NCBI GenBank assembly: GCA_963676835.2
Contig: CAXXFF010000002.1
Span: 512,001-576,000, forward strand
Length of the DNA: 64,000 nt
Direction of reading: 5' to 3'
Source: Marispirochaeta sp.
Lineage (GTDB): Bacteria > Spirochaetota > Spirochaetia > JC444 > Marispirochaetaceae
Under the pieces are notes generated by a model, which saw only the letters and a program-made list of their open reading frames with translations, was not told the origin of the DNA and searched no databases. Positions within the stretch are counted from its first letter, which is position 1. Each line of letters starts with the position of its first letter. This document shows, piece after piece, positions 8,414-59,222 of the stretch. The translations under genes were made by a program, and so were the position numbers.

Positions 8414-9541
8414 TTATTTTTTACCCCTTAATATTACATACCGTCCGTTATCCGCGATGATTTCAATATTGCCGAAAATTCTTTGAATACGCCGGTGATA
8501 GCCCAGGTGCGTGTTGGCCACAATCTGCAGCTCCCCGCCGGGTTTCAGCTTCTCATGGGAATCATCTATAAGAGAGAAGGCAGTATCAAGACTGGTTGCC
8601 CGTCCCTGATGAAAGGGAGGATTGGACAAGACAAGATCCAGGGAAGCCGGTTCAATTATATTCAGAGACATTCCATGGACAGCGCTTACCCGGCATTCCA
8701 GACCATTACGGCGGATATTCTCTTCGGCAGATGCCACCGCCGCGGCTGAATCATCAATCATGGTTACCCGGGAATCGCTCAAATGGAGAGCCGCACGAAT
8801 GCCGAGGATTCCATTACCGCAGCCGAAATCCGCAATCTGCCTCCACGATTCATCAAGCTTAAGGTGGTCAAGAAAAAACCGGGTCCCCGGATCCTGACGG
8901 TGCCGGGAAAATACACCGGGAAGATTGATCAGCGGCTCAGGAATCCCATCCACAAGATAGGCAGCTTCCTTTTCGTTCGGAAGATCTGTTTTATCATGGT
9001 CGGGGGTACAGAAAATAAGCCGTGCCTTCTTTCGTGCCAGACTGCTTGTGGTCGTTCCCAGAATCTTCTCGAAACAGGCGATGGTTGAGGTATGGATATG
9101 ACGGGTCATGCCGGCACCGATGACAATTGCCGAACTGTCTGCAAAGCGGCGTACCAGACGCAGCTGATGTTCCAGCAGATCAAGGCTGTCCGGAATTTTT
9201 ATAAGCACCTGCGATACCGGATGAACCGGTGCGCTGTTATCCGCAAATATTGATCCGTCTGCCTGAAATCCATTCAATTCCAGATTTTTGAGAATTCCCT
9301 GCCGGGAGGTAAAGGAATCTGTATACACGGTCACAGGAGAGGCAAAGAGCGGCACAGCCAGCCCTCCCCGTTTATCATTGAATACAGCCAGCCCGTCAAT
9401 ATTCGGCCCGCTGTTTTCATGGAGATAAGCCAGAATATACTCATCGGCAGAATCCCAGGCCCGAAGAGCCCCTGAAACATCTTCGCTGTGAAGCCCCAAA
9501 ATTACTGTTCCATAGGGGTTTGTAAAATTAGTTTCAGCCAT
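8414..9541 (-). CDS. rlmG: RlmG/RsmC-like rRNA guanine-N2 methyltransferase
   Basis: LRAWDSADEY, PGVFS, DFGCGNGILG and NPPFHQ motifs. Confidence 0.75.
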   Translation of the reverse strand: MAETNFTNPYGTVILGLHSEDVSGALRAWDSADEYILAYLHENSGPNIDGLAVFNDKRGGLAVPLFASPVTVYTDSFTSRQGILKNLELNGFQADGSIFADNSAPVHPVSQVLIKIPDSLDLLEHQLRLVRRFADSSAIVIGAGMTRHIHTSTIACFEKILGTTTSSLARKKARLIFCTPDHDKTDLPNEKEAAYLVDGIPEPLINLPGVFSRHRQDPGTRFFLDHLKLDESWRQIADFGCGNGILGIRAALHLSDSRVTMIDDSAAAVASAEENIRRNGLECRVSAVHGMSLNIIEPASLDLVLSNPPFHQGRATSLDTAFSLIDDSHEKLKPGGELQIVANTHLGYHRRIQRIFGNIEIIADNGRYVILRGKK

Positions 9542-47997: not shown

Positions 47998-48030
47998 TTT
48001 TCTCCTCGAACCAATTCTTTAGTTAATTTC

Positions 48031-48112
48031 ATACAATGTCCCACGAATAGGTGAAGTTGCTATGGGAAATTTGGGGGAAGTCACAAGCGAGACCGTGCAT
48101 TCGCTGTTGTAT
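48031..48112 (-). repeat. attC-like site 1 (degenerate)
   Basis: ATACAAT-gtccc-acgaata...cattcgc-t-GTTGTAT. Confidence 0.7.
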
Positions 48113-48130
48113 GATGTGCTTGTTAGTGTG

Positions 48131-48574
48131 CTATGCCTTTTCCAACATCCTCTTTAAATCATCCATGTCAGCAAGAAAAGCCTTCTTCATCCCACCCACC
48201 ATAAATGAAAAGAGTAAATTGAGAAGTTTCGCAGTAAAAGTAGTTGCTCTTCCGGAAAACTCAATTGAAACTCCGGTTTTACCGCCTTCATCAATAAAAC
48301 GCCATTCTGTAGCGTAGTGCATTCCGTTTGACTGCGCCTCTTCTTTGAAATAGTCGGGAGGGTTGAATTGAGTTATTTCCATTGTTTCGCTGGATTCTTT
48401 TCCAAACATGACTCGGGTTTCTTTAAACTTACTCCCTATGCCGACTTCTCCAGGTGTCAAGATTTCAATACTTTTAATGGCCTTTACGTTGTTTGCTAAA
48501 TTTTTCAGGTCAGAAAACGCATTGAATACTTCAGCCTTTTCTGCATTGATTGTGCCATGGGCTTTAACTTTCAT
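48131..48574 (-). CDS. SRPBCC/polyketide cyclase-like protein (cassette)
   Basis: GIGSKFKETRVMFGK, DMDDLKR. Confidence 0.85.
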   Translation of the reverse strand: MKVKAHGTINAEKAEVFNAFSDLKNLANNVKAIKSIEILTPGEVGIGSKFKETRVMFGKESSETMEITQFNPPDYFKEEAQSNGMHYATEWRFIDEGGKTGVSIEFSGRATTFTAKLLNLLFSFMVGGMKKAFLADMDDLKRMLEKA

Positions 48575-48667
48575 TCTGGTCTCCTTTGCTATTTTCAAAC
48601 TTAACTATAGGTATTTCTATAGAATTCAAAACTGCTTTCAGCTGTTCTGCCGAACACCGGCAGTTTC

Positions 48668-48741
48668 ATACAACATTCCGCGAAGTTGTCGAAAGCAATT
48701 TGGGTGACGCCGCAGGCGGAACCGCTTATTTGCTGTTAGGT
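48668..48741 (-). repeat. attC-like site 2 (internal deletion)
   Basis: ATACAAC-attcc-gcgaa...tatttgc-t-GTTAGGT. Confidence 0.75.
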
Positions 48742-48759
48742 GACGTTCTGTTTTTGCAC

Positions 48760-49059
48760 TTAAGATACTTTCACTTGTTGAATTTTATCGAGTTCTATTT
48801 CAATTTTTGGACGTTCAATACGCAATTCATACTCATCCTGAATTCCAAGCCAAAAATCTGGAGAGTTTCCAAAATACTTAGCTAAGCGAAGAGCAGTGTC
48901 TGCAGTAATCTTACGATTTCCCTTTAGAATTTGAGAAATTCTAGTCGCTGGCATATTTGTATCTTTTGCTAACCGATATGCACTTATGTTCATTGGACCA
49001 AGAAATTCTTCTAGGAGAATTTCTCCTGGAGTTATTACTGGGATTTTTTCCATACTCAC
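48760..49059 (-). CDS. higA: HigA antitoxin
   Basis: PGEILLEEFL, ITADTALRLAKYFG.SPDFWL. Confidence 0.93.
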   Translation of the reverse strand: MSMEKIPVITPGEILLEEFLGPMNISAYRLAKDTNMPATRISQILKGNRKITADTALRLAKYFGNSPDFWLGIQDEYELRIERPKIEIELDKIQQVKVS

Positions 49060-49343
49060 CTCTTATGGTAATCAGTTATCTCGACTTCGGTGGCTGTTCC
49101 ATTATTCCAATAAAAACAAATACGCCACTGAGAATTAATCCTTATGCTGTACTGCCCTTTTCTATCCCCTGAAAGCTGCTCAAGTCTGTTACCCGGCGGT
49201 ACCCTAAGATCATTGATGTCTTTTGATCGATGTATAAGTATTAACTTTCTTAAGCCTATTCTTTGCATTTCTTTCGGGAAATGTTTTGAATAGGTTCCAT
49301 TCCATATTTTCTTTGTGTCTTTATCTTTAAAAGATTCTATCAC
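49056..49343 (-). CDS. higB: HigB (RelE-like) toxin
   Basis: DLRVPPGNRLEQL.GDRKGQYSIRIN.QWRICF, DYH. Confidence 0.93.
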   Translation of the reverse strand: MIESFKDKDTKKIWNGTYSKHFPKEMQRIGLRKLILIHRSKDINDLRVPPGNRLEQLSGDRKGQYSIRINSQWRICFYWNNGTATEVEITDYHKR

Positions 49344-49349
49344 TAATCA

Positions 49350-49378
49350 ATAGTAACGCTTCTCGTTACTAACGTCAA
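49350..49378 (-). promoter_or_regulatory. higBA promoter/operator
   Basis: TTGACG-N17-TACTAT enclosing the palindrome TAGTAACG-N5-CGTTACTA. Confidence 0.75.
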
Positions 49379-49404
49379 GCGTTAATATATTTAAACAGAA
49401 TGTC

Positions 49405-49486
49405 ATTTAACGTTCCGCGAATATATGAAGTTGGCCGAAGGCCAATCTTTGTGAAGCGCAGCGAAACCGCCTATTCGCTGTTATAT
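49405..49486 (-). repeat. attC-like site 3
   Basis: ATTTAAC-gttcc-gcgaata...tattcgc-t-GTTATAT. Confidence 0.85.
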
Positions 49487-49532
49487 GTCGTTTGACTGTA
49501 ACCGTCAATTAAACCTCACCCAGAGAAAAAAA

Positions 49533-51053
49533 TCAGAGGGAAATATTCCATGGCAGCAATTTTTCCCAGTTATCAGATTCATTCATGAGTGGAGCTTCCT
49601 CAAAAACGCGTCTCAGGTAGTCGTTCGGGTTCACATTATTTTGTTTGGCTGTCTCAATCAGTGAATACATGGCACAGGAACTTTCTGCCCCCTTTGGACT
49701 ACCGGAAAATAACCAGTTCTTTCGGCCCAGAACAAACGGCCGAATAGCCTGTTCCGCGCTATTGTTGTCAGGTGTCAGATAAGGAGAATCGAGGTAGTGT
49801 ACCAGTTTCTCCCATTCGTTCAAGGTGTACTGAATTGCTTTCCCAAGCAATAACGAAGGAGGAACCTGCTGACTGCGTTTTTCAAGCCAGGTTCTAAACT
49901 TCTGCAAAACCGGTTCCGCCTGAGATTTGCGCTGGTCAACAAACTGGTCTTCGGGCAATTCCATACTGCGAAGACGCTCTTCAATTCCATACAGTTTCCT
50001 GATGGCATTCAATGCTTCCTGTGCACTTGCTGCTTTCTTCGAGGCCTTTGCAGCTTCATGAAACTTTCGCCGAACATGGGCCATGCAGCCGACATGGACT
50101 ATCTGTTCATTCCCCGCCAGGGCTGTACGATACGCATCATAGCCGTCGGTCTGTAAAAAGCCGCTGAATCCATCGAGAAGTTCTTTAATATGCCGGGACC
50201 CGCGGGTTTCCCGGTATGAATAAAGCAATCCCGGGTTTTCCGGAGGGCCGCCGCGGGCAAGCCACATATAGGATTTCGCCGTGTCAGGGCGTTCCGGTTC
50301 TCCGTGTACCTGGACCGGGGTTTCATCCATGTTGATGACCGGCCCTGACCGGATATGCGTTTTCAGTGTTTCTATTAACGGTTCAATTTTATCAAACGCC
50401 GCCTGCTGCCAGTTGCTCATGTTCTGACGGCTTATGTGGATGCCGATTCTTTCAAACCGTTTCTCCTGCCGGTAATAGGGCAGATGATCGACAAACTTGT
50501 TCACTATGATGAAGGAGATCAATCCTGGCGTTACAATGCTTTTAGGGATAATACTTGCAGGGGGATCAGCAACCCTTACCGCCGGCTTCTCTTCATCCCC
50601 GGAGCCTTCACAGTTTTTACAGGCATACTTGGGGCGGATAATCCGTTCCACCCACATCTTCGGGGGGATTACCTGTAAGCGCTCGCTGGTCTCTTCGCCG
50701 ATACGAACCAGCGCATGGCCGCAGGCACACTGTTTTTCTTCTTCGGGAATATCAATGATGATCTCATCCCGGGGAAGGCTTTCATCAATTGGTTTTCTGC
50801 CGGATTTCCTGCGGGGATGGGACTGAACTGGTACGGAAGTCTCTGATGCATCGTTCTCCGAAGTACCATTCTCTTCAAGTCCGAACAACAGCGGTTGATA
50901 CTCATCCAGTTGTTCTTTTTCACTTTTACGGCCAAATTTCTGAAGAAGAAGCAATTTGTACTGCTCTTCCAAGGCACCATAACGCTGCTCCCAGGAACTA
51001 TTAAGTTCGTGGATATAGTCCTGTACTTCCCTGGGAAGTTCTGTAACATCCAT
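49533..51053 (-). CDS. tnpC: IS66 DDE transposase (outer)
   Basis: Zn-finger, KFVDHLPYYRQ, DET, TDGY, CMAHVRRKF, NN.AE.AIRP, GRKNWLF. Confidence 0.95.
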   Translation of the reverse strand: MDVTELPREVQDYIHELNSSWEQRYGALEEQYKLLLLQKFGRKSEKEQLDEYQPLLFGLEENGTSENDASETSVPVQSHPRRKSGRKPIDESLPRDEIIIDIPEEEKQCACGHALVRIGEETSERLQVIPPKMWVERIIRPKYACKNCEGSGDEEKPAVRVADPPASIIPKSIVTPGLISFIIVNKFVDHLPYYRQEKRFERIGIHISRQNMSNWQQAAFDKIEPLIETLKTHIRSGPVINMDETPVQVHGEPERPDTAKSYMWLARGGPPENPGLLYSYRETRGSRHIKELLDGFSGFLQTDGYDAYRTALAGNEQIVHVGCMAHVRRKFHEAAKASKKAASAQEALNAIRKLYGIEERLRSMELPEDQFVDQRKSQAEPVLQKFRTWLEKRSQQVPPSLLLGKAIQYTLNEWEKLVHYLDSPYLTPDNNSAEQAIRPFVLGRKNWLFSGSPKGAESSCAMYSLIETAKQNNVNPNDYLRRVFEEAPLMNESDNWEKLLPWNISL

Positions 51054-51114
51054 GCTAATAAGAATTCTAGCATGCCGTACATTCTATGTAAATTCCTTTA
51101 CACCAATAATATGC

Positions 51115-51462
51115 TTACGAAACCCGCGAATATTCCAAACTAGTATGTTCATTCCAAAAATCGATGCCTTTCAACAGCATCGATAGCTGTTCCGGGGTAA
51201 TCATACGTGCAGTTTCTTCGGTTACGGGCCAGGGAAACTTATGCTTTTCCAGTTTCTTCTGCCAGAGACAGAATCCGTTCTTGTCCCAGTAGAGGGCTTT
51301 CATAATTCGTCGTTCGCGGTTGCAGAACAGAAACAGATTGCCGCTTAACGGATTTTCATTCATATAGTCCTGCACCATGACAACTAAGCCGTTGATTGCT
51401 TTACGCATATCAGTGATGCCTGGCCGGATAAATATCTGTACCGCTGATAAATCTGGGGTCAT
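51115..51462 (-). CDS. tnpB: IS66 accessory protein (outer)
   Basis: TDMRKAINGL, LYWD.NGF.LW.KKLE. Confidence 0.95.
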   Translation of the reverse strand: MTPDLSAVQIFIRPGITDMRKAINGLVVMVQDYMNENPLSGNLFLFCNRERRIMKALYWDKNGFCLWQKKLEKHKFPWPVTEETARMITPEQLSMLLKGIDFWNEHTSLEYSRVS

Positions 51463-51693
51463 TCATAAACCCTCAAGGCTGTTAATACTGCTTTAAGCTG
51501 GTCATGGTTTGCTGTTACCGGCAGAGTAATAACAATATCGTGCAACTTTATGGTAATGGTTTCTTTTTTGGATAAATGATGAAAAGAGCTTTTTACTGGT
51601 ATGAACCCGGCTGCTGCTGTTTCAGAAGCTAATCCTGTTTGTACGGCACGTTTCCTTTGTAACCGTCAATTAAACCTCACCCAGAGAAAAAAA

Positions 51694-53223
51694 TCAGAGG
51701 GAAATATTCCATGGCAGCAATTTTTCCCAGTTATCAGATTCATTCATGAGTGGAGCTTCCTCAAAAACGCGTCTCAGGTAGTCGTTCGGGTTCACATTAT
51801 TTTGTTTGGCTGTCTCAATCAGTGAATACATGGCACAGGAACTTTCAGCCCCCTTTGGACTACCGGAAAATAACCAGTTCTTTCGGCCCAGCACAAATGG
51901 CCGGATGGCCTGCTCCGCGCTATTGTTGTCCGGCGTCAGATAAGGCGAATCAAGGTAGTGTACCAGTTTCTCCCATTCGTTCAAGGTGTACTGAATTGCT
52001 TTCCCAAGCAATAACGAAGGAGGAACCTGCTGACTGCGTTTTTCAAGCCAGGTTCTAAACTTCTGCAAAACCGGTTCCGCCTGAGATTTGCGCTGGTCAA
52101 CAAACTGGTCTTCGGGCAATTCCATACTGCGAAGACGCTCTTCAATCCCATACAGTTTCCTGATGGCATTCAATGCTTCCTGTGCACTTGCTGCTTTCTT
52201 CGAGGCCTTTGCAGCTTCATGAAACTTTCGCCGAACATGGGCCATGCAGCCGACATGGACTATCTGTTCATTCCCCGCCAGGGCTGTACGATACGCATCA
52301 TAGCCGTCAGTCTGTAAAAAGCCGCTGAATCCATCGAGAAGTTCTTTAATATGTCGGGACCCGCGGGTTTCCCGGTATGAGTAAAGCAATCCCGGGTTTT
52401 CCGGAGGGCCGCCGCGGGCAAGCCACATATAGGATTTCGCCGTGTCTGGGCGTTCCGGTTCTCCGTGTACCTGGACCGGGGTTTCATCCATGTTGATGAC
52501 CGGCCCTGACCGGATATGCATTTTCAGAGTCTCAATTAAAGGTTCAATCTTTTCATACGTCATCTGCTGCCAGTTGCTCATGTTCTGACGGCTTATGTGG
52601 ATGCCGATCCGCTCAAATCGTTTCTCCTGCCGGTAATAGGGCAGATGATCTACAAATTTATTCACTATGATGAAGGAGAGCAATCCAGGCGTTACAATGC
52701 TTTTAGGGATGATACTTGCAGGGGGGGCAGCAACCCTTACTGCCGGCTTCTCTTCATCCCCGGAGCCTTCACAGTTCTTGCAGGCATACTTGGGACGGAT
52801 AATCAGTTCTACCCACATCTTCGGGGGGATTACCTGTAAGCGCTCGCTGGTCTCTTCGCCGATACGAACCAGCGCATGGCCGCAGGCACACTGTTTTTCA
52901 TCTTCGGGAATATCAATGATGATCTCTTCCCGGGGAAGGCTTTCATCAATTGGTTTTCTGCCGGATTTCTTGCGGGGATGGGACTGAACTGGTACGGAAG
53001 TCTCTGATGCATCGTTCTCCGAAGTACCATTCTCTTCAAGCCCGAACAACAGCGGTTGATACTCATCCTGTTGTTCTTTTTCACTTTTACGGCCAAATTT
53101 CTGAAGAAGAAGCAACTTGTACTGCTCCTCCAAGGCACCGTAGCGATGTTCCCAGGAACTGTTTGCTGTCTCAAGAGAGTGAATGTAGTCTTGTACTTCC
53201 TTCGGAAGGGCTGCAACATCCAT
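51694..53223 (-). CDS. tnpC: IS66 DDE transposase (inner)
   Basis: Near-identical to outer tnpC. Confidence 0.95.
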   Translation of the reverse strand: MDVAALPKEVQDYIHSLETANSSWEHRYGALEEQYKLLLLQKFGRKSEKEQQDEYQPLLFGLEENGTSENDASETSVPVQSHPRKKSGRKPIDESLPREEIIIDIPEDEKQCACGHALVRIGEETSERLQVIPPKMWVELIIRPKYACKNCEGSGDEEKPAVRVAAPPASIIPKSIVTPGLLSFIIVNKFVDHLPYYRQEKRFERIGIHISRQNMSNWQQMTYEKIEPLIETLKMHIRSGPVINMDETPVQVHGEPERPDTAKSYMWLARGGPPENPGLLYSYRETRGSRHIKELLDGFSGFLQTDGYDAYRTALAGNEQIVHVGCMAHVRRKFHEAAKASKKAASAQEALNAIRKLYGIEERLRSMELPEDQFVDQRKSQAEPVLQKFRTWLEKRSQQVPPSLLLGKAIQYTLNEWEKLVHYLDSPYLTPDNNSAEQAIRPFVLGRKNWLFSGSPKGAESSCAMYSLIETAKQNNVNPNDYLRRVFEEAPLMNESDNWEKLLPWNISL

Positions 53224-53285
53224 ACTGAAAAAAATTCTAGCATACAGCTCTTTCTCTGTAAATTCCTTTACACCATTAAAATGCT

Positions 53286-53633
53286 TTAAGAAACACGGGA
53301 ATATTCCAAAGTAGTATGTTCATTCCAGAAATCGATGCCTTTCAACAGCATCGATAGCTGTTCCGGGGTAATGGCAAGAGCATCTTCTTCAGTTACGGGC
53401 CAGGGGAATTTATGCTTTTCCAGTTTCTTCTGCCACAGGCAGAAACCATTCCGGTCCCAATACAATGCCTTCATGATTCGTCGTTCGCGGTTGCAGAACA
53501 GAAACAGATTGCCGCTTAACGGATTTTCATTCATATAGTCCTGCACCATGACAACTAAGCCGTTGATTGCTTTACGCATATCAGTGATGCCTGGCCGGAT
53601 AAATATCTGTACGGCTGATAAATCTGGGGTCAT
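53286..53633 (-). CDS. tnpB: IS66 accessory protein (inner)
   Basis: As outer tnpB. Confidence 0.95.
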   Translation of the reverse strand: MTPDLSAVQIFIRPGITDMRKAINGLVVMVQDYMNENPLSGNLFLFCNRERRIMKALYWDRNGFCLWQKKLEKHKFPWPVTEEDALAITPEQLSMLLKGIDFWNEHTTLEYSRVS

Positions 53634-53959
53634 TCATAAACCCTCAAGGCTGTTAATACTGCTTTTAGCTGGTCATGATTTGCTGTTACCGGCAGAGTAA
53701 TAACAATATCGTGCAACTTTATGGTTATGGTTTCTTTTTCGGATAAATGATGAAAAGAGCTTTTTACTGGTATGAACCGGGCTGCTGCTGTTTCAGAGCC
53801 TATTCCGGTTTGTACGGCACGTTTCCTTTCGGCTTTTTTCCAGCTGTAAAACGTTGTGGGTGGTATTTCGTGCTGCCGGCAATACTCCTGCCCGCTTAAC
53901 CCGCTTTTTTCCCAATTTCTAAGATGTTCACACTGCTGTTCCCGGTTATATTTGACCAT
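53630..53959 (-). CDS. tnpA: IS66 HTH protein (inner)
   Basis: WEKSGLS..EYC..H.I...TFYSW, FIPV. Confidence 0.9.
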   Translation of the reverse strand: MVKYNREQQCEHLRNWEKSGLSGQEYCRQHEIPPTTFYSWKKAERKRAVQTGIGSETAAARFIPVKSSFHHLSEKETITIKLHDIVITLPVTANHDQLKAVLTALRVYE

Positions 53960-54232
53960 GCGATTCCTCCATTAAGGGAGGATTGTAGGGCATTCATTGA
54001 TGTCGGCATAAGGTGGGGTTTAATTGACGGTTACTTTCCTTTCGGCTTTTTTCCAGCTGTAAAATGTTGTGGGTGTTATTTCGTGCTGCCGGCAATACTC
54101 CTGCCCGCTTAACCCACTTTTTTCCCAATTTCTAAGATGTTCACACTGCTGTTCCCGATTATATTTGACCATGCGATTCCTCCATTAAGGGAGGATTGTA
54201 GGGCATTCATTGATGTCGGCATAAGGTGGGGT

Positions 54233-54652
54233 TTAATTGACGGTTACGTTTGACTCTTGCACCCAGTTTTCAATGATCAGTTTGGGTACTCTCTCAAATT
54301 CCTTTACATTATTTGTAACAAGACATAAGTTTCTTGTTACACACTGTGCGGCTATTTGGAGATCATATGGCCCAATTGGGGTACCTAATTTATTTAGATA
54401 AGCACGTATATACCCGAAGTTCTCAGCGTCTAATTCACTAAAAGGGATAATTTCAAAAGGAGACAGAAATCCATATAGTAATTCCCTATTTCGATCAGGA
54501 TATAAACTTTTTGCTATTCCATACTCCAGTTCAGCTATAGTAATTGAAGAAAGAGCAATATTAAACAACTCTTCATCCTCTATCCTGATTTGAAGTTCGG
54601 GATATTTCTTTTTCATTAAATAAATACAAATATTTGTATCAAGTAAATACAC
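54233..54652 (-). CDS. vapC: VapC PIN-domain toxin (last codons supplied by IS66 end)
   Basis: YLLDTNICI, GPYDLQIAA, LVTNN..EF.RV. Confidence 0.92.
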   Translation of the reverse strand: MYLLDTNICIYLMKKKYPELQIRIEDEELFNIALSSITIAELEYGIAKSLYPDRNRELLYGFLSPFEIIPFSELDAENFGYIRAYLNKLGTPIGPYDLQIAAQCVTRNLCLVTNNVKEFERVPKLIIENWVQESNVTVN

Positions 54653-54882
54653 TATATACTTTCCCGTTCTTGCATTTCGGGCTGCTCTCTCCCTTCCGAG
54701 AATAAATCATCGGAAAACATATTTATACTATTTCTAAAAGAAGACCATAAATCATCTTTTGAAGTTAGAATAATAGAGCTTCCTACTTTATGTATAAGGA
54801 GCTCCGAATCAGAAATCGCATATTCTTTTGGGATTCTAATAGCTTGGCTATTGCCACTTCGGAATACTTTTACCGTTTGCAT
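54652..54882 (-). CDS. vapB: VapB (AbrB-type) antitoxin
   Basis: KVFRSGNSQAIRIPKEY. Confidence 0.92.
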   Translation of the reverse strand: MQTVKVFRSGNSQAIRIPKEYAISDSELLIHKVGSSIILTSKDDLWSSFRNSINMFSDDLFSEGREQPEMQERESI

Positions 54883-54902
54883 ATTTTATGCCTCCTGCAT
54901 CA

Positions 54903-54931
54903 AGTATATACCTATGTGTATACATTTTCAA
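54903..54931 (-). promoter_or_regulatory. vapBC promoter/operator
   Basis: TTGAAA-N17-TATACT overlapping the imperfect palindrome GTATATAC-N4-GTGTATAC. Confidence 0.7.
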
Positions 54932-54943
54932 GAGTCAAATGAC

Positions 54944-55038
54944 ATATAACGTCCCGGGGTTATGTGACGTACGGCGTAAGCCGTATGTGGCGCAGCCCGA
55001 GGAGCGTATAGCGACGAAGCACATAGCCCCTGTTATAC
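54944..55038 (-). repeat. attC-like site 4
   Basis: ATATAAC-gtccc-ggggttatgtg...cacatagcccc-t-GTTATAC. Confidence 0.88.
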
Positions 55039-55052
55039 GACGTTTCATATAT

Positions 55053-55460
55053 CTACCTTTGAGCAATTATTTCTTTTACAAACTCTTTTGAAAAATCGTA
55101 TTGCTCAGAGTTTTCCACCTCAAATTTTATATTATATCCTTCCGAATATTTTCTGGCGGTTGATACCATTTCTTTATATTTTACCATATCCTCTTTAGAC
55201 TCAAAATATTCTTTTTCATTTTTTCTAATAGCCATACTCAGAATAAAGGAATCGTTCAACGGAATAAAATAGTAAAGTGCTTTTTTCTTATCTTCTACTT
55301 TTTCCATCCAGCCACTCGATCTTGAATGATTCCAGGTGTGTTGAAAATCTTTTGTCAATTTATTTAAATCTTGATAATATTCGGAAACAACACCGAGTGC
55401 TTCATTTATTTTTTCGTTTGTAGGTTCATTCGATTTTTCTTTAAACGGTCTTTCACTCAC
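55053..55460 (-). CDS. DUF3788-like protein (cassette)
   Basis: PT...I..ALG, SGW..K..KKKAL.Y.IP, YSEG. Confidence 0.65.
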   Translation of the reverse strand: MSERPFKEKSNEPTNEKINEALGVVSEYYQDLNKLTKDFQHTWNHSRSSGWMEKVEDKKKALYYFIPLNDSFILSMAIRKNEKEYFESKEDMVKYKEMVSTARKYSEGYNIKFEVENSEQYDFSKEFVKEIIAQR

Positions 55461-55491
55461 TTTTTACTCCATTTTAGATATGTGATATGTC

Positions 55492-55637
55492 GTATAACGT
55501 GATGCGAATATGCGAAGATATTCGCTGAAATTATACTATCATGTTTGTCCATTAGAACAAACATGATTTTTGTAAAATGCAAGAGCGGATATTTTGAGCG
55601 AAGGCTGAAAGCCGTAGCCGCATATTCGCAGTTAGTA
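55492..55637 (-). repeat. attC-like site 5
   Basis: GTATAAC-gtgat-gcgaatatgcg...cgcatattcgc-a-GTTAGTA. Confidence 0.88.
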
Positions 55638-55659
55638 GAAGTGTTTAATTTTTTTATAA

Positions 55660-56106
55660 CTATAATTCGTTTGTTCTACCAAAAGCAAAAGTTGCTTTTG
55701 ATGTGTATTTTGCAGAAAACCCTTTCATTTCTGAATCCATGGCTTGATCTAACATTATTATTGCATTTGCACCTTTTGTTTTAGCATAATCCTTCAATAA
55801 TTTATAATACTCAGAAGCATCTGGTTGCTTATAATTCATATTGAACCCTGATAATTTGTTCGTTGTATTTATTGTGATCATTCCAATTTGATTGTATTTA
55901 AAAGAAGGTGGTATTAACATATTAGAATGATATGCAACGGCTGAATCAACCGCTAATGCAGGATAAACTTTACCTGTTGGTATATACAATTCTTCTAAAT
56001 CAGTCATTGTATAATCTGATACATTACTTTTTTCTTTGTTTGTAGATGTTGTTACACATCCCAATAATGTTAATAAAAGTACTAAAATTAAAATTAACTT
56101 TCTCAT
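55660..56106 (-). CDS. Hypothetical lipoprotein (cassette)
   Basis: Lipobox LLGC, AKTKGANAII (YbjQ-like). Confidence 0.7.
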   Translation of the reverse strand: MRKLILILVLLLTLLGCVTTSTNKEKSNVSDYTMTDLEELYIPTGKVYPALAVDSAVAYHSNMLIPPSFKYNQIGMITINTTNKLSGFNMNYKQPDASEYYKLLKDYAKTKGANAIIMLDQAMDSEMKGFSAKYTSKATFAFGRTNEL

Positions 56107-56185
56107 GGTCACTCCTTAATTATTAATAAATTATTTATAGCAAAATTTCTTCTTAAAATCAATATTCTATAATTTTAAACACTTC

Positions 56186-56445
56186 TACTAACGTTCCGCG
56201 AATATATGAATTTTCTATCAAAAACACGGGTTTATTTTCAATATAACGCCGTTTTCTGCTGCAGACCGTGAAATTGGCGCAGAATGTGCGTAAGCAGATT
56301 CTGTGACAATAGGGCTGACAGTAGCAAAACATGGTTATATTGTCGTTTATTATAGCATGTAAATTGTTTATTTCGGAACCAATTCTTTTTGATAGAAATT
56401 TGGCGAAGCCCGGAGCGAAGCGGAGCATATCATTCGCTGTAAAAC
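56186..56445 (-). repeat. attC-like site 6 (260 bp, long internal insert)
   Basis: TACTAAC-gttcc-gcgaatatatg...catatcattcgc-t-GTAAAAC. Confidence 0.8.
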
Positions 56446-56473
56446 GAAGTTTTCTTGGGGGCGCGTACAATAA

Positions 56474-56890
56474 TTAATGCTGATGTACGAAGCTGTTAAT
56501 AAAATTTCCATCCATATCAAAAACAATGTCGAATGTATCAGGATCAATTCCATACCCAGTCCACCAACCTATTGAATATAATAATATATCTCTCTCTTCT
56601 TCATAATCATTGATAAAGGCATCCTCTGGTTCTCCTAAGAGTTCAATTGTTTCTAGTTTATTTAATTTTTTCTCATTCAAAATACTTTGTAGTGATTCTA
56701 CCATTTTCCCGCGATCATTATCGGTGCCCCAGTTTCCAGCATTTTCCTTCCAAACCACTTCATTAAAAGGGAGATCATCGAAAATATTTCCACCTTTTGC
56801 AATGTAGGAGACACAACTAGAAAAAATTAGAGTTGCGAAGAATATCAGAAAAACTGAAATGTTGTTCCTATGCGTAAAGATCGTTTTCAT
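56474..56890 (-). CDS. Hypothetical lipoprotein (cassette)
   Basis: Lipobox FSSC, RGKMV..L, IELLGEP. Confidence 0.7.
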   Translation of the reverse strand: MKTIFTHRNNISVFLIFFATLIFSSCVSYIAKGGNIFDDLPFNEVVWKENAGNWGTDNDRGKMVESLQSILNEKKLNKLETIELLGEPEDAFINDYEEERDILLYSIGWWTGYGIDPDTFDIVFDMDGNFINSFVHQH

Positions 56891-56918
56891 TTTGAAAAAT
56901 ATCCCCCAAGAAAATTTT

Positions 56919-57009
56919 GTTTAACGTTCTGACAATATATGAAGTCTACCACGGAGTGGGAGATTTGGCGAAGCCCGAAGCGAAGCGGAGCATATATTGT
57001 CTGTTAGAA
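56919..57009 (-). repeat. attC-like site 7
   Basis: GTTTAAC-gttct-gacaatatatg...catatattgtc-t-GTTAGAA. Confidence 0.88.
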
Positions 57010-57063
57010 GTAGTTACATCCTGCCATTGCATAATAAATAAACCGAAAGGAAAACACTAAGAT

Positions 57064-57513
57064 TTAATACAGTGGTTCAAACTGCTTATTCTCGGGATTC
57101 CAGAAATATACACGAGCATTATTAATGAAGTTTTTCCCTTCATTTGTGTAGACTGATAACTTTAAAGTTATATCGTCTCCTATTTCAATTTTATACCCAT
57201 AGAAGACTGAATCTCGACGCATTGGCACTTTGTGAGGATCTTTGCTCCAATAGTCTGTAATCATCTCTTTCTCAATTCTAAAAACTTCATGAATAGATCT
57301 GGAGCTCGTAGAAAGGATTAGCATTTGGTCAAAAAAAGTTTGACTATCGTCAATGTAGTGGAATCCGAAATATAAACCCTGAGGTTCGAAGGAGGTGATA
57401 ATGAACTCTTTTTCATTAAAAAAAGATTTCATTTCATCGTCAATTGACTCAGAGAATGAAAAATATGAAAAACCTAAAAGAAAAACTAGCGTGATGAAAT
57501 ATTTTTTTGACAT
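57064..57513 (-). CDS. Exported hypothetical protein (cassette)
   Basis: Signal peptide, bounded by sites 7 and 8. Confidence 0.65.
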   Translation of the reverse strand: MSKKYFITLVFLLGFSYFSFSESIDDEMKSFFNEKEFIITSFEPQGLYFGFHYIDDSQTFFDQMLILSTSSRSIHEVFRIEKEMITDYWSKDPHKVPMRRDSVFYGYKIEIGDDITLKLSVYTNEGKNFINNARVYFWNPENKQFEPLY

Positions 57514-57550
57514 GTACATCTCCATAACCAATTGAAAAGGATGTAATTAC

Positions 57551-57640
57551 TTCTAACGTTCCGGGTTTATATGACGTTTTTGCAACGCAAAAATGTGGCG
57601 TAGCCCAAGCCGAAGGCGCAGCATATAAACCCTGTTATAC
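57551..57640 (-). repeat. attC-like site 8
   Basis: TTCTAAC-gttcc-gggtttatatg...catataaaccc-t-GTTATAC. Confidence 0.88.
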
Positions 57641-57660
57641 GATGGTTTTTGGTTCAGTTG

Positions 57661-57942
57661 TCAGGCCTTCTGAATTTTCCAAACTGAATCCTTTAATTCC
57701 CTATATGCTTCCATACCAGGACTGAGATCAGAAATATCATTTATTGATGAATCAATATTCAAAGCTTCTTGCATACTGATCACACGGCCATCTTCTGTAT
57801 TATTAGTTGTTCCACAAAAAAATCCCCAAGAATGATCATCCTCATAGTGCACAACTTTTAAAATGGGATATCCTTCTTCAAGCACTTGCTTTGTGGTAAT
57901 TGCAGCAGTATTTGGCGATTGATCAAAATTCCATTTATCCAT
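57661..57942 (-). CDS. DUF2185/immunity-like small protein (cassette)
   Basis: VVHYEDDHSWGFFCG, ID.SI..I.DL.PG..A.R. Confidence 0.6.
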   Translation of the reverse strand: MDKWNFDQSPNTAAITTKQVLEEGYPILKVVHYEDDHSWGFFCGTTNNTEDGRVISMQEALNIDSSINDISDLSPGMEAYRELKDSVWKIQKA

Positions 57943-57983
57943 CAGCATACCATTTCTATAAAATAAGTTTTCCAAAAACTATC

Positions 57984-58134
57984 GTATAACGTCTCGCCAA
58001 TATGCGAAGTTGCCTGGCACCCCATCGGGGTTGATAAATGCTGGGAAAATTGTAGCACGGTTTTTCCGGCATTTGTCAAAGGCAATTTGGGTGCAGTGAG
58101 CAAAGCGAACGGAACCGCATATTGGCTGTTATGC
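57984..58134 (-). repeat. attC-like site 9
   Basis: GTATAAC-gtctc-gccaatatgcg...cgcatattggc-t-GTTATGC. Confidence 0.88.
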
Positions 58135-58336
58135 GAAGGAATCAGACTTTTATTCCTGCTCACACCAGCGTCGTTCTTGCCGGGTGCGACTGCACCTTAA
58201 TGAAGCCTTCCACTTGGACGGTCTTTATTACGCATTGCGTATTAATTCCCGGCCCGCGCAACTCTTTAAAAAGCAGGAATTACGACACCATTTTTAATGG
58301 TGCGACTATATATCCCCACTGATTCTTTCGCATAAC
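58128..58336 (-). other. ORF-less first cassette with multiple stems (candidate ncRNA or regulatory cassette)
   Basis: Bounded by an 18-bp IR, no credible ORF, several inverted repeats. Confidence 0.6.
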
Positions 58337-58352
58337 TACACTTATCCGCATT
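58325..58352 (-). promoter_or_regulatory. attI-like / dif-like primary recombination site
   Basis: TTTCGCATAA-CTACAC-TTATCCGCAT. The last cassette end is not followed by an attC core; the site abuts the integrase. Confidence 0.7.
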
Positions 58353-58373
58353 GTACATTAAGTTCCCCATTAT

Positions 58374-59222
58374 ATGAAGCAACATAATACTTCTGCGGTT
58401 ATTATAAGTATGAGCACTACATATATTGAGAAAATAGCCAGAGAAATGCAGGATCATATGATCTTCCGTAACTATTCACGCCACAGCATTACAGCATACA
58501 TTTCTCACATTCGATCATTTCACAACTTTTGCAGCAATACCAGTGAATCCAACCGCGAAAAACGTATCATTGCGTATATAAATCAATGTCCCCACTCAAG
58601 CAGGACAGTGGCGCGGTCGGCCTTGAAATACCTCTATGTAAATATCCTGAAAATCCCGGTTTCCATTTTAGATGTTAAGGTGCGTCATAGCCAAAAAATC
58701 CCCCCGGTTTTATCACGAGCCGAGGCTATCAGTCTTATCAACTCCATTACAAATTGTAAGCACCGTCTTATGATCGCCCTTTTGTATGGATCAGGATTAA
58801 GGGTAAGCGAAGTTGTCAATTTGAAAGTTGGAGACGTACTTCTTTCGCGTCAAAAGCTTCATATCAGGCAGGCGAAGAACAAAAAAGACAGGATTGTAGT
58901 CCTGTCCGCAGAATTGATGCCCCAGATAATTAACGATATAGCCGGCAGATCACCGAAAGAGTGGCTGTTCTTAAATCAATCTGGAAAGAAATATGCTATC
59001 CGGACAGTTCAGGCTGTTTTCAAAAAAGCCCTTCACAAGTGCAATCTCAACAGAAATGCCAGCTGTCATTCCCTCCGCCATTCGTTTGCAACATCACTGC
59101 TGGAAAATGGTGTGGACATAAGGCTTATACAGGCTCAACTTGGGCACTCAAATCTCAAAACAACCATGCGCTATACAAGGATTTCCGGAGCTATGATTGA
59201 AAATCTTCAATCTCCTTTATAG
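58374..59222 (+). CDS. Tyrosine recombinase (integron-integrase-like, lacking IntI insertion)
   Basis: N-terminal RNYS.HSI.AY, then YGSGLRVSE, K.KKDR, HSLRHSFAT, LGH, TTMRY. True start may be 58410. Confidence 0.9.
   Translation: MKQHNTSAVIISMSTTYIEKIAREMQDHMIFRNYSRHSITAYISHIRSFHNFCSNTSESNREKRIIAYINQCPHSSRTVARSALKYLYVNILKIPVSILDVKVRHSQKIPPVLSRAEAISLINSITNCKHRLMIALLYGSGLRVSEVVNLKVGDVLLSRQKLHIRQAKNKKDRIVVLSAELMPQIINDIAGRSPKEWLFLNQSGKKYAIRTVQAVFKKALHKCNLNRNASCHSLRHSFATSLLENGVDIRLIQAQLGHSNLKTTMRYTRISGAMIENLQSPL

Follow-up and report, generated by a model that had tools for sequence, protein, structure and literature searches.

A stretch of 64,000 nucleotides from Marispirochaeta sp. (assembly GCA_963676835.2, contig CAXXFF010000002.1, positions 512,001 to 576,000; hereafter the window) holds an array of gene cassettes resembling that of an integron, and it raises the question of why each cassette is bracketed by an inverted repeat of its own. 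Nine attC-like sites (S0-S8) and nine cassettes occupy 48.0-58.3 kb, with all cassette genes on the minus strand. A tyrosine recombinase gene lies to the right of the array, pointing away from it, and is preceded by a conserved attI-like block. The repeats, here called arms, make up the outer stretch of the R stem in these attC-like folded sites, and the stem formed by a cassette's own ends, 18-20 bp, is about twice as long as in classical integrons. The explanation that we consider quite probable is that the arms are the split R-stem strands of a dif-shaped, attC-like site that folds from single-stranded DNA, and that the duplex made by a cassette's own ends is used by a recombinase lacking the insert of IntI proteins.

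Arms specific to each cassette

An all-against-all comparison of the arms provides the central observation. Arms of the same cassette match over 18-24 nucleotides (nt), or 9 nt in the SRPBCC cassette, while the two arms flanking one site match over 0-9 nt only. The preliminary description of this locus had listed eight arm pairs, and all eight were recovered with the same positions and match counts, as were the 9 nt kept by the SRPBCC cassette. An independent repeat search recovered six pairs lying within 54200-58400. A scan blind to the sites, which accepted inverted repeats anchored by GTT... and ...AAC, of at least 16 nt and at least 85% identity and 150-3500 nt apart, found six in the array, compared with a mean of 0.0 in five shuffles. 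The features are listed below; site coordinates run from the last base of the left core (AAC, except AAT in S0) to the G of GTT.

48037..48106, plus strand: site S0, distal end of the array
48106..48674, minus strand: SRPBCC cassette, own arms 48106-48114 and 48666-48674, only 9 nt
48674..48735, plus strand: site S1
48735..49411, minus strand: higBA cassette, arms 48735-48753 and 49393-49411, matching 16/19
49411..49480, plus strand: site S2
49480..54950, minus strand: vapBC cassette, arms 49480-49497 plus 54256-54259 and 54929-54950, matching 21/22
49498..54255, minus strand: IS66-family insertion, two partly duplicated copies, 94% alike over 2.17 kb
54950..55032, plus strand: site S3
55032..55498, minus strand: DUF3788 cassette, arms 55032-55055 and 55475-55498, matching 21/24
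55498..55631, plus strand: site S4
55631..56192, minus strand: cassette with an open reading frame of 150 amino acids (aa), arms 55631-55648 and 56175-56192, matching 18/18
56192..56439, plus strand: site S5, long loop with a nested attC-like hairpin at 56239-56342
56439..56925, minus strand: cassette with a 138-aa open reading frame, arms 56439-56461 and 56903-56925, matching 20/23
56925..57003, plus strand: site S6
57003..57557, minus strand: cassette with a 155-aa open reading frame, arms 57003-57022 and 57538-57557, matching 19/20
57557..57634, plus strand: site S7
57634..57990, minus strand: cassette with a 104-aa open reading frame, arms 57634-57652 and 57972-57990, matching 18/19
57990..58128, plus strand: site S8
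58128..58336, minus strand: first cassette, adjoining attI, 209 nt with no convincing open reading frame, arms 58128-58145 and 58319-58336, matching 17/18
58337..58380, plus strand: attI-like site, TACACTTATCCGCATTGTACATTAAGTTCCCCATTATATGAAGC, abutted by the arm of the first cassette at TAAC/TAC (slash, joint)
58410..59222, plus strand: tyrosine recombinase, 270 aa from this ATG, 282 aa from the ATG at 58374

The left vapBC arm is split because the IS66-family block was inserted inside it; this block is flanked by an 8-bp target duplication (GTTTGACT) and also contains a 217-nt repeat internally. In the higBA cassette, all three arm mismatches are G.T pairs when read on the plus strand. No family could be assigned to the four open reading frames of 104-155 aa. 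To the left of S0, a search for a partner arm, a further cassette or a bracketing repeat found none. The arm at this distal end, ATTGTATGAAAT (48024-48037, read outward), resembles both arms of the SRPBCC cassette, GTTGTATGATGT (48106-48117) and GTTGTATGAAAC (48663-48674), and this cassette is the only one in the window with a short own stem.

The same arrangement recurs beyond the window. Homologues of the recombinase at E <= 1e-45 were found in 39 of 401 genomes sampled from the class, including 7 of 7 from the family, and arrays of the same site type, placed on the side and strand expected relative to the gene, are present in ten genomes (G004, G005, G006, G002, G003, G232, G159, G167, G226 and G151). 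Across nine arrays whose recombinases are 39-71% identical, own arms reach at least 15 nt in 48 of 64 inter-site intervals, with a median of 20 over all 64; arms of this length occur in 1 of 64 same-site pairs and in 18 of 1280 random non-own pairs. The site-blind scan found 65 anchored repeats in the nine window-type loci (119.9 kb). At more distant homologue loci, anchored bracketing repeats were few (L050, L054, L060) or were not found (L051, L052, L055-L059, L061-L063). In one related array (locus L017, genome G005), a 26-nt sequence (...CACGTCCAGTCGCACTTG...) stands before the sites at 8603, 11111, 13072 and 18704, which suggests a repeated element or a duplicated cassette end.

Classical integrons served as the control, and one of them lies in the same genome. 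Contig C3 carries, at C3:1-29100, a classical integron with a 419-aa IntI (355.7 bits against a cut-off of 265) and at least 19 sites of another type, TAAC-ATC-CAATTGAGCTGC ... GCTCCAATTGC-Tk-GTTAT; two more clusters of this site type, with 6 and 4 sites, lie at C4:336-342 kb and C1:3.5-9 kb. Own-end complementarity in C3 has a median of 9 over 16 cassettes, with 18 reached by a small cassette that is present in two copies. For four further classical arrays from the class (L103, L104, L105, L118) the median is 8 and the maximum 12, and none of 24 cassettes reaches 15. These values bear out the earlier statement that canonical cassettes have only short R''/R' complementarity, and they supply the comparison of repeat lengths between homologous and classical arrays that had been called for: at least 15 nt in 48 of 64 intervals versus 0 of 24 cassettes in these four arrays. 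Repeat clustering found clusters in 13 of the 17 classical loci fetched, of which four were measured in detail; locus L117 was left out since the right-core pattern matched no site there. The site-blind scan returned 12 anchored repeats in 18 classical IntI loci (363 kb), three of them in C3.

Arms were found to consist of a shared and a specific part. Read from the core, the arm to the right of a site is GTTAnnnGnAGT, and the reverse complement of the arm to the left is GTTAnnnGnAAT. Positions 1-12 follow a common frame, GTTAnnnGnA(G/A)T, and only positions 5-7, 9-10 and 13-20 are specific to a cassette. Across a site in the array, positions 1-4, 8, 11 and 12 pair in 77-100% of 48 cases, whereas positions 5-7, 9-10 and 13 onward pair close to background (29-64%, most 41-54%). 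Within a cassette, pairing stays at or above 83% through position 18, drops to 66% over positions 19-20 and is at background level beyond position 20. This profile by position defines an arm as a core base, an 11-position frame in which positions 5-7 and 9-10 are free, and about 6-8 further free positions. The claim that the arms are private to their cassettes and unpaired across a site therefore stands for the specific positions, and fails for the shared frame, which still pairs across the site.

Position 11 carries a particular signature. It is G in the site-right arm and A in the reverse-complemented site-left arm in 42 of 48 cassettes, so that the pair is a G.T wobble on the plus (non-coding) strand and an A.C mismatch on the coding strand. 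Among all arm mismatches, 62 are G.T on the array strand and 9 on the opposite strand (binomial p = 7e-11). The higBA cassette also occurs in G004, and the three arm differences from the copy in the window all preserve pairing on the plus strand.

Folding was predicted with ViennaRNA and DNA parameters, for sites as they stand in the array and for the junctions of circularized cassettes:

Window, nine sites, in the array: bottom strand -23.6 kcal/mol, 3.9 outer pairs (of 26)
Window, nine sites, circle junction: bottom strand -35.7 kcal/mol, 18.9 outer pairs
47 window-type cassettes, in the array: bottom strand -28.4 kcal/mol, 6.2 outer pairs
47 window-type cassettes, circle junction: bottom strand -40.2 kcal/mol, 19.3 outer pairs
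39 classical cassettes, in the array: bottom strand -29.5 kcal/mol, 5.7 outer pairs
39 classical cassettes, circle junction: bottom strand -32.9 kcal/mol, 9.1 outer pairs

The predicted gain in the circle is thus 11.8 kcal/mol for the 47 window-type cassettes and 3.4 for the 39 classical ones, and the circle form is the more stable in the window and in related arrays alike. The top strand of the window gives -19.6 kcal/mol in the array and -29.2 at the circle junction, and the array (bottom) strand is more stable than its complement in 46 of 47 circle junctions. The preliminary description had expected the arms to lengthen the hairpin only in an excised circle. The predicted energies and outer pairs agree with this, but the true extension beyond a protein-sized arm comes to only about 8 bp, because the first 12 positions belong to the shared frame and are most likely the arm bound by the recombinase, not free private sequence.

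Site architecture and the recombinase

On the plus strand, the sites are laid out as ...TAAC/G-TTCC-GCGAATATnCGAAG ... loop ... CGnATATTCGC-T/GTTA... (slashes, arm borders), and the half-site consensus over related arrays (77 left and 43 right half-sites) is TAAC-G-TTCC-GCGAATATnCGAAGTT ... GGAACCGnATATTCGC-T-GTTA. All nine window sites are imperfect palindromes with an inverse core AAC, a core GTT, and R and L boxes, as expected of attC. No Rfam family matched anywhere in the window at gathering thresholds. A purely structural scan, in which every AAC...GTT pair was folded under constraint, was unspecific (23-42 'sites' per strand) and was dropped.

The two halves of the L stem belong to the same site. 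They match perfectly (11/11) in 25 of 48 sites, with a mean of 9.9, while the 3' half of one site and the 5' half of the next match perfectly in 5 of 48 cases (mean 8.7), and random pairs in 3 of 48 (mean 8.3). A crossover in the loop, with the L halves belonging to the cassette, was rejected on these grounds, as L pairing from site to site is that of random pairs. The L strands pair within a site and the R strands within a cassette, which places the partner switch at the conserved core, in the segment bounded by the L stem and by R-stem position 5. The extrahelical bases of the L region that mark classical sites are not a feature of these, in about half of which the L stem is perfect. The irregularities lie elsewhere: four nucleotides bulge out beside the core, and a 3x3 internal loop with AAG opposite AAC is conserved.

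The attI-like site is a 44-nt block upstream of the recombinase gene, and six genomes of the genus share it. Left of the TAAC, each of the six has a different sequence, and unrelated cassette arms abut it directly, with no site body between. Because the arm of the first cassette meets attI at TAAC/TAC, a cassette read on its coding strand consists of start arm, gene, end arm and site body, which is the classical order. Judged from the sequence, the plus strand would then correspond to the bottom strand, with the joint at TAA/C. The complementarity of cassette ends is the footprint expected of a circle opened at G/TT, and it was found.

By inspection, attI comprises an 11-bp arm, a 6-nt centre CTACAC (CTACyC across genomes) and an 11-bp arm TTATCCGCATT, and the latter carries the frame letters T2, T3, A4, G8, A10 and T12. 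In the consensus of the 77 and 43 half-sites, a motif ending in GAAGT is present twice in inverted symmetry, once in the 3' strand of the R stem and once in the 5' strand of the L stem, with six pairs between the two copies: C-G, G.T, G-C, c-g, g-c and a-T. The four bases TTCC bulge from the strand that bears TAA/C. Both attI and the folded site may therefore be read as 11-6-11 like Xer/dif, with a putative crossover at the border of arm and centre, and such a layout accounts for conservation that runs to position 12.

The recombinase itself is related to both IntI and XerA. It scores 192.9 bits against XerA_Arch (NCBIfam; cut-off 220) and 177 bits against TIGR02249 (cut-off 265); the latter match is in two stretches that leave model positions 178-239 unmatched. 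The best solved relative, VchIntIA (2a3v), is likewise matched in two stretches, with chain residues 183-246 skipped. The XerA structures 4a8e and 5hxy come next and are matched along the whole length of the recombinase. The additional domain specific to IntI is thus missing. Databases name the family only 'tyrosine-type recombinase/integrase' or 'XerD', and the database record is 270 aa long. The longest open reading frame begins at the ATG at 58374, inside the conserved attI block; as this ATG is not kept in relatives, the true start is probably the ATG at 58410, which would give 270 aa. The stop counted within the G004 match may fall in the upstream part, 58374-58410.

In a tree of 38 rows (one of which, IntI_L095, is a wrongly picked open reading frame on a very long branch and is to be ignored), 12 classical IntIs form a clade (100/100) that is sister (97/92) to 10 short spirochaete recombinases including that of the window. 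Both clades lie inside a grade of other short homologues from candidate phyla, and the genome's own Xer-like proteins fall outside. In another genome of the class, G179 (contig C194:363-2284), a short recombinase gene and a classical intI stand tail to tail, about 220 nt apart.

Two further structures concern the relation between both site types. The hairpin nested in S5 (-26.7 kcal/mol, z -5.9) combines a 9-bp stem (CAATATAAC/GTTATATTG) with a 3x3 spacer and an inner stem that carries a bulge. It is attC-like by fold and not by sequence, because half-site profiles of the C3 type gave no match to the window at E <= 1. The classical integron of contig C3 contains a toxin-antitoxin cassette twice (L007, 3058-3902 and 6813-7650). 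Its gene pair, with one BrnA-like member, lies between window-type arms (17/18, with G/A at position 11), which are in turn enclosed by the two halves of one window-type site. From its sequence, this cassette looks like a window-type circle that was opened at a classical site in its loop, and such dual-site cassettes could move between both systems.

Proposed mechanism and alternative explanations

In the proposed mechanism, a site on the plus strand would comprise the arm ...ATTnCnnnTAA/C, then G, the TTCC bulge, the 11-bp L stem, the loop, the returning L strand, T and the second arm. Recombination would take place on this single strand, with exchange presumably at TAA/C, where the R arm joins the 6-bp centre. 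Since the crossover would lie about 20 bp inside the stem, the gene would end up between two stem strands on insertion: at attI, one strand of the R stem would remain with the site body and the other would come to lie beyond the gene, so that each cassette would carry its own complementary pair. Positions 2-12 would form the recombinase-sized 11-bp arm with which the protein would make its contacts, in the same frame as the two arms of attI and giving 11-6-11, and positions 13-20 would act as a private clamp that closes the open end of the hairpin with 6-8 extra pairs. The recombinase, being without the IntI domain for extrahelical bases, probably needs a true duplex R arm. Such a duplex would come only from the cassette's own ends, either in an excised single-stranded circle or in a single-stranded array with the gene looped out. 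The G.T pair at position 11 and the other wobbles would make the plus strand fold better than the coding strand and would thereby select the strand. For recombination of a folded bottom strand with double-stranded attI, as in integrons, the wobble bias and the difference in fold energy between strands are indirect signs. The earlier suggestion that the arms record how cassettes are created found no support; complementary ends are what a crossover inside a long stem is expected to leave.

Several points weigh against this explanation. Long arms are absent from 16 of the 64 intervals; 12 of these 16 exceed 1.8 kb and may contain missed sites or insertions, and the other four span 637-1106 nt and include the SRPBCC cassette of the window. 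Without position 11 the wobble bias is weak (20 versus 9, p = 0.06), so the strand argument is carried mainly by position 11 and the fold energies. Sites at related loci were found by profiles seeded from the window sites, including 10 nt of one arm, and the shared frame was therefore partly selected for, although the private positions were not. The 11-6-11 layout and the cleavage point were read off consensus sequences by eye. The tree is narrowly sampled, with IntIs from one class and outgroup Xer proteins on long branches. As evidence of excision, the contigs of the one public run that holds the locus offered joints that proved unusable: the three joints classed as 'skipping' rest on sides of 23-34 nt located at conserved GTTA/TAAC cores, and one 'goes back' joint comes from a contig that is 91% alike. 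Finally, sites built in the same way, including G/A at position 11, occur on a Peribacteria contig where different cassettes have similar long arms. This argues that the long stem is the core feature and that privacy follows from cassettes of mixed origin. These Candidatus Peribacteria sites (L010, 1800-5420) lie 4.7-8 kb from a 34%-identical recombinase, with other genes between.

How a split stem would affect the movement of cassettes can be answered in more than one way. It was proposed earlier that sites fold fully only in the circle, so that poor sites in the array and good ones in circles would raise the rate of capture over that of loss and keep the array stable. We regard this as possible, if on balance doubtful. 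The predicted outer pairs, few in the array and many at circle junctions, and the near-background pairing of positions 5-7, 9-10 and 13 onward across a site speak for it. Sites in the array cannot be dead, though, because cassettes must be excised to form circles; the frame preserves in-array pairing at 7-8 of the first 12 positions, and in a fully single-stranded array own arms pair anyway (6/6 on the plus strand), which supplies a perfect R arm without excision.

That last prediction leads to a rather unlikely alternative, in which own arms pair across the gene on long single-stranded DNA (the lagging-strand template, conjugation or transformation) and promote excision of the whole cassette. 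The next site would thereby receive a perfect R arm whose strand is uninterrupted and can be cleaved, and both crossover points of the cassette would be brought next to each other. When 54880-58420 was folded as one single strand, the minimum-energy structure contained own-arm stems for 6/6 cassettes on the plus strand (5/6 on the minus strand), with the genes looped out, and no same-site stems. This support is a thermodynamic prediction, however, and stems closing loops of 300-500 nt form more slowly than local hairpins. The synapse would also have to accommodate a one-base tether between sites. For excision, the two models predict opposite outcomes.

It is improbable that the arms are passive relics, that is, unselected leftovers of the palindrome that gave rise to the site of each cassette. 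In favour, the oldest and most distal cassette retains only 9 nt, and arm pairs have 0-3 mismatches. Yet stem length stays at 18-20 nt even between arrays with recombinases of just 39-40% identity, 42 of 48 cassettes share the G.T at position 11, wobbles on one strand are overrepresented among the mismatches, and the changes seen between homologous cassettes preserve pairing. A role at the RNA level or as a transposon (a panhandle of mRNA ends, a terminator, or the terminal inverted repeats of a miniature transposon) would suit arms that lie in untranslated cassette ends and closely bracket the open reading frame, but is very improbable: position 11 is an A.C mismatch on the coding strand and the wobbles (62 versus 9) favour the non-coding one, every arm starts from a GTT/AAC site core and, outside the common frame, has a sequence peculiar to its cassette, where a miniature transposon would have family-wide repeats, and the arms have no flanking target duplications, unlike the IS66 block.

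Comparison with integrons, Xer/dif and CTX integration

In integron biology, attC sites are recognized by their structure through the additional domain of IntI, and the R box is only 7 bp long. A sister recombinase without this domain, paired with R stems of 18-20 bp and found in genomes that also hold a short-stem classical integron, provides a natural paired comparison. It opens the questions of what the extra domain replaces, how a strand is chosen without extrahelical bases, and whether a split stem tunes capture against loss. In practice, long stems offer a rule for defining cassette boundaries in arrays of this kind, which would escape current integron finders because these look for the IntI domain, and they present a design for structure-specific recombination sites with unit-specific addressing. 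A search at the level of titles and abstracts, with subscription journals and supplements outside its coverage, found no published description of long cassette-specific stems or of integron-like arrays with an insert-less integrase. What the window contributes is the classical control in the same genome, the frame and wobble, the shared 11-6-11 reading, the location of the partner switch and the dual-site cassettes.

With classical integrons, the arrays share co-oriented, mostly single-gene cassettes beside a divergent tyrosine recombinase and attI. They also share imperfect-palindrome sites with AAC...GTT cores, one strand of which folds better. Loot et al. 2017 (PMC5371416) give the R box a length of 7 bp, in which 4 bases vary and may stay unpaired in the array; as in that account, the variable part is complementary within the cassette and not within the site in the array. 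The differences are the own-end stem of 18-20 bp (median 8-9 bp in 40 classical cassettes from five arrays), the conserved 12-position frame with G.T at position 11, the 4-nt bulge next to the crossover on the strand presumed to be cleaved, and the absence of the extra domain from the recombinase. A perfect L stem is frequent here, whereas classical sites of the same genome carry an extrahelical base.

Likeness to Xer/dif (XerC/D; archaeal XerA, 4a8e and 5hxy) is seen in a recombinase that resembles XerA over its full length, without the IntI insert, and, by inspection, in the 11-6-11 build of attI and the folded site with the crossover at the border of arm and centre. Resolution of dimers by Xer uses one double-stranded 28-bp site per replicon; here nine or more sites stand in an array and bound mobile genes, and cassette sites form by the folding of one strand, with one arm that is cassette-specific and depends on the fold. 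Tentatively, and with low confidence, it may be suggested that the arrays preserve the ancestral design of integrons, consisting of an insert-less Xer-like recombinase, a dif-shaped fold of single-stranded DNA, a duplex arm made from own ends and self-synapsing stems that span the gene. IntI would later have exchanged this arm for the reading of extrahelical bases, and dual-site cassettes would shuttle between the two systems in one cell.

A further parallel to the proposed fold is the integration of CTX phage. Val et al. 2005 are reported to have shown that XerCD integrates the phage genome as single-stranded DNA, by way of a hairpin folded into a mimic of dif. For CTX, a folded single strand gives a dif-like duplex with an irregular centre, on which only one strand exchange is possible, and the same would hold for the sites described here. 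The CTX hairpin is a phage attachment site served by the Xer proteins of the host and has no split, unit-specific stem, whereas the window holds a cassette array with a recombinase of its own.

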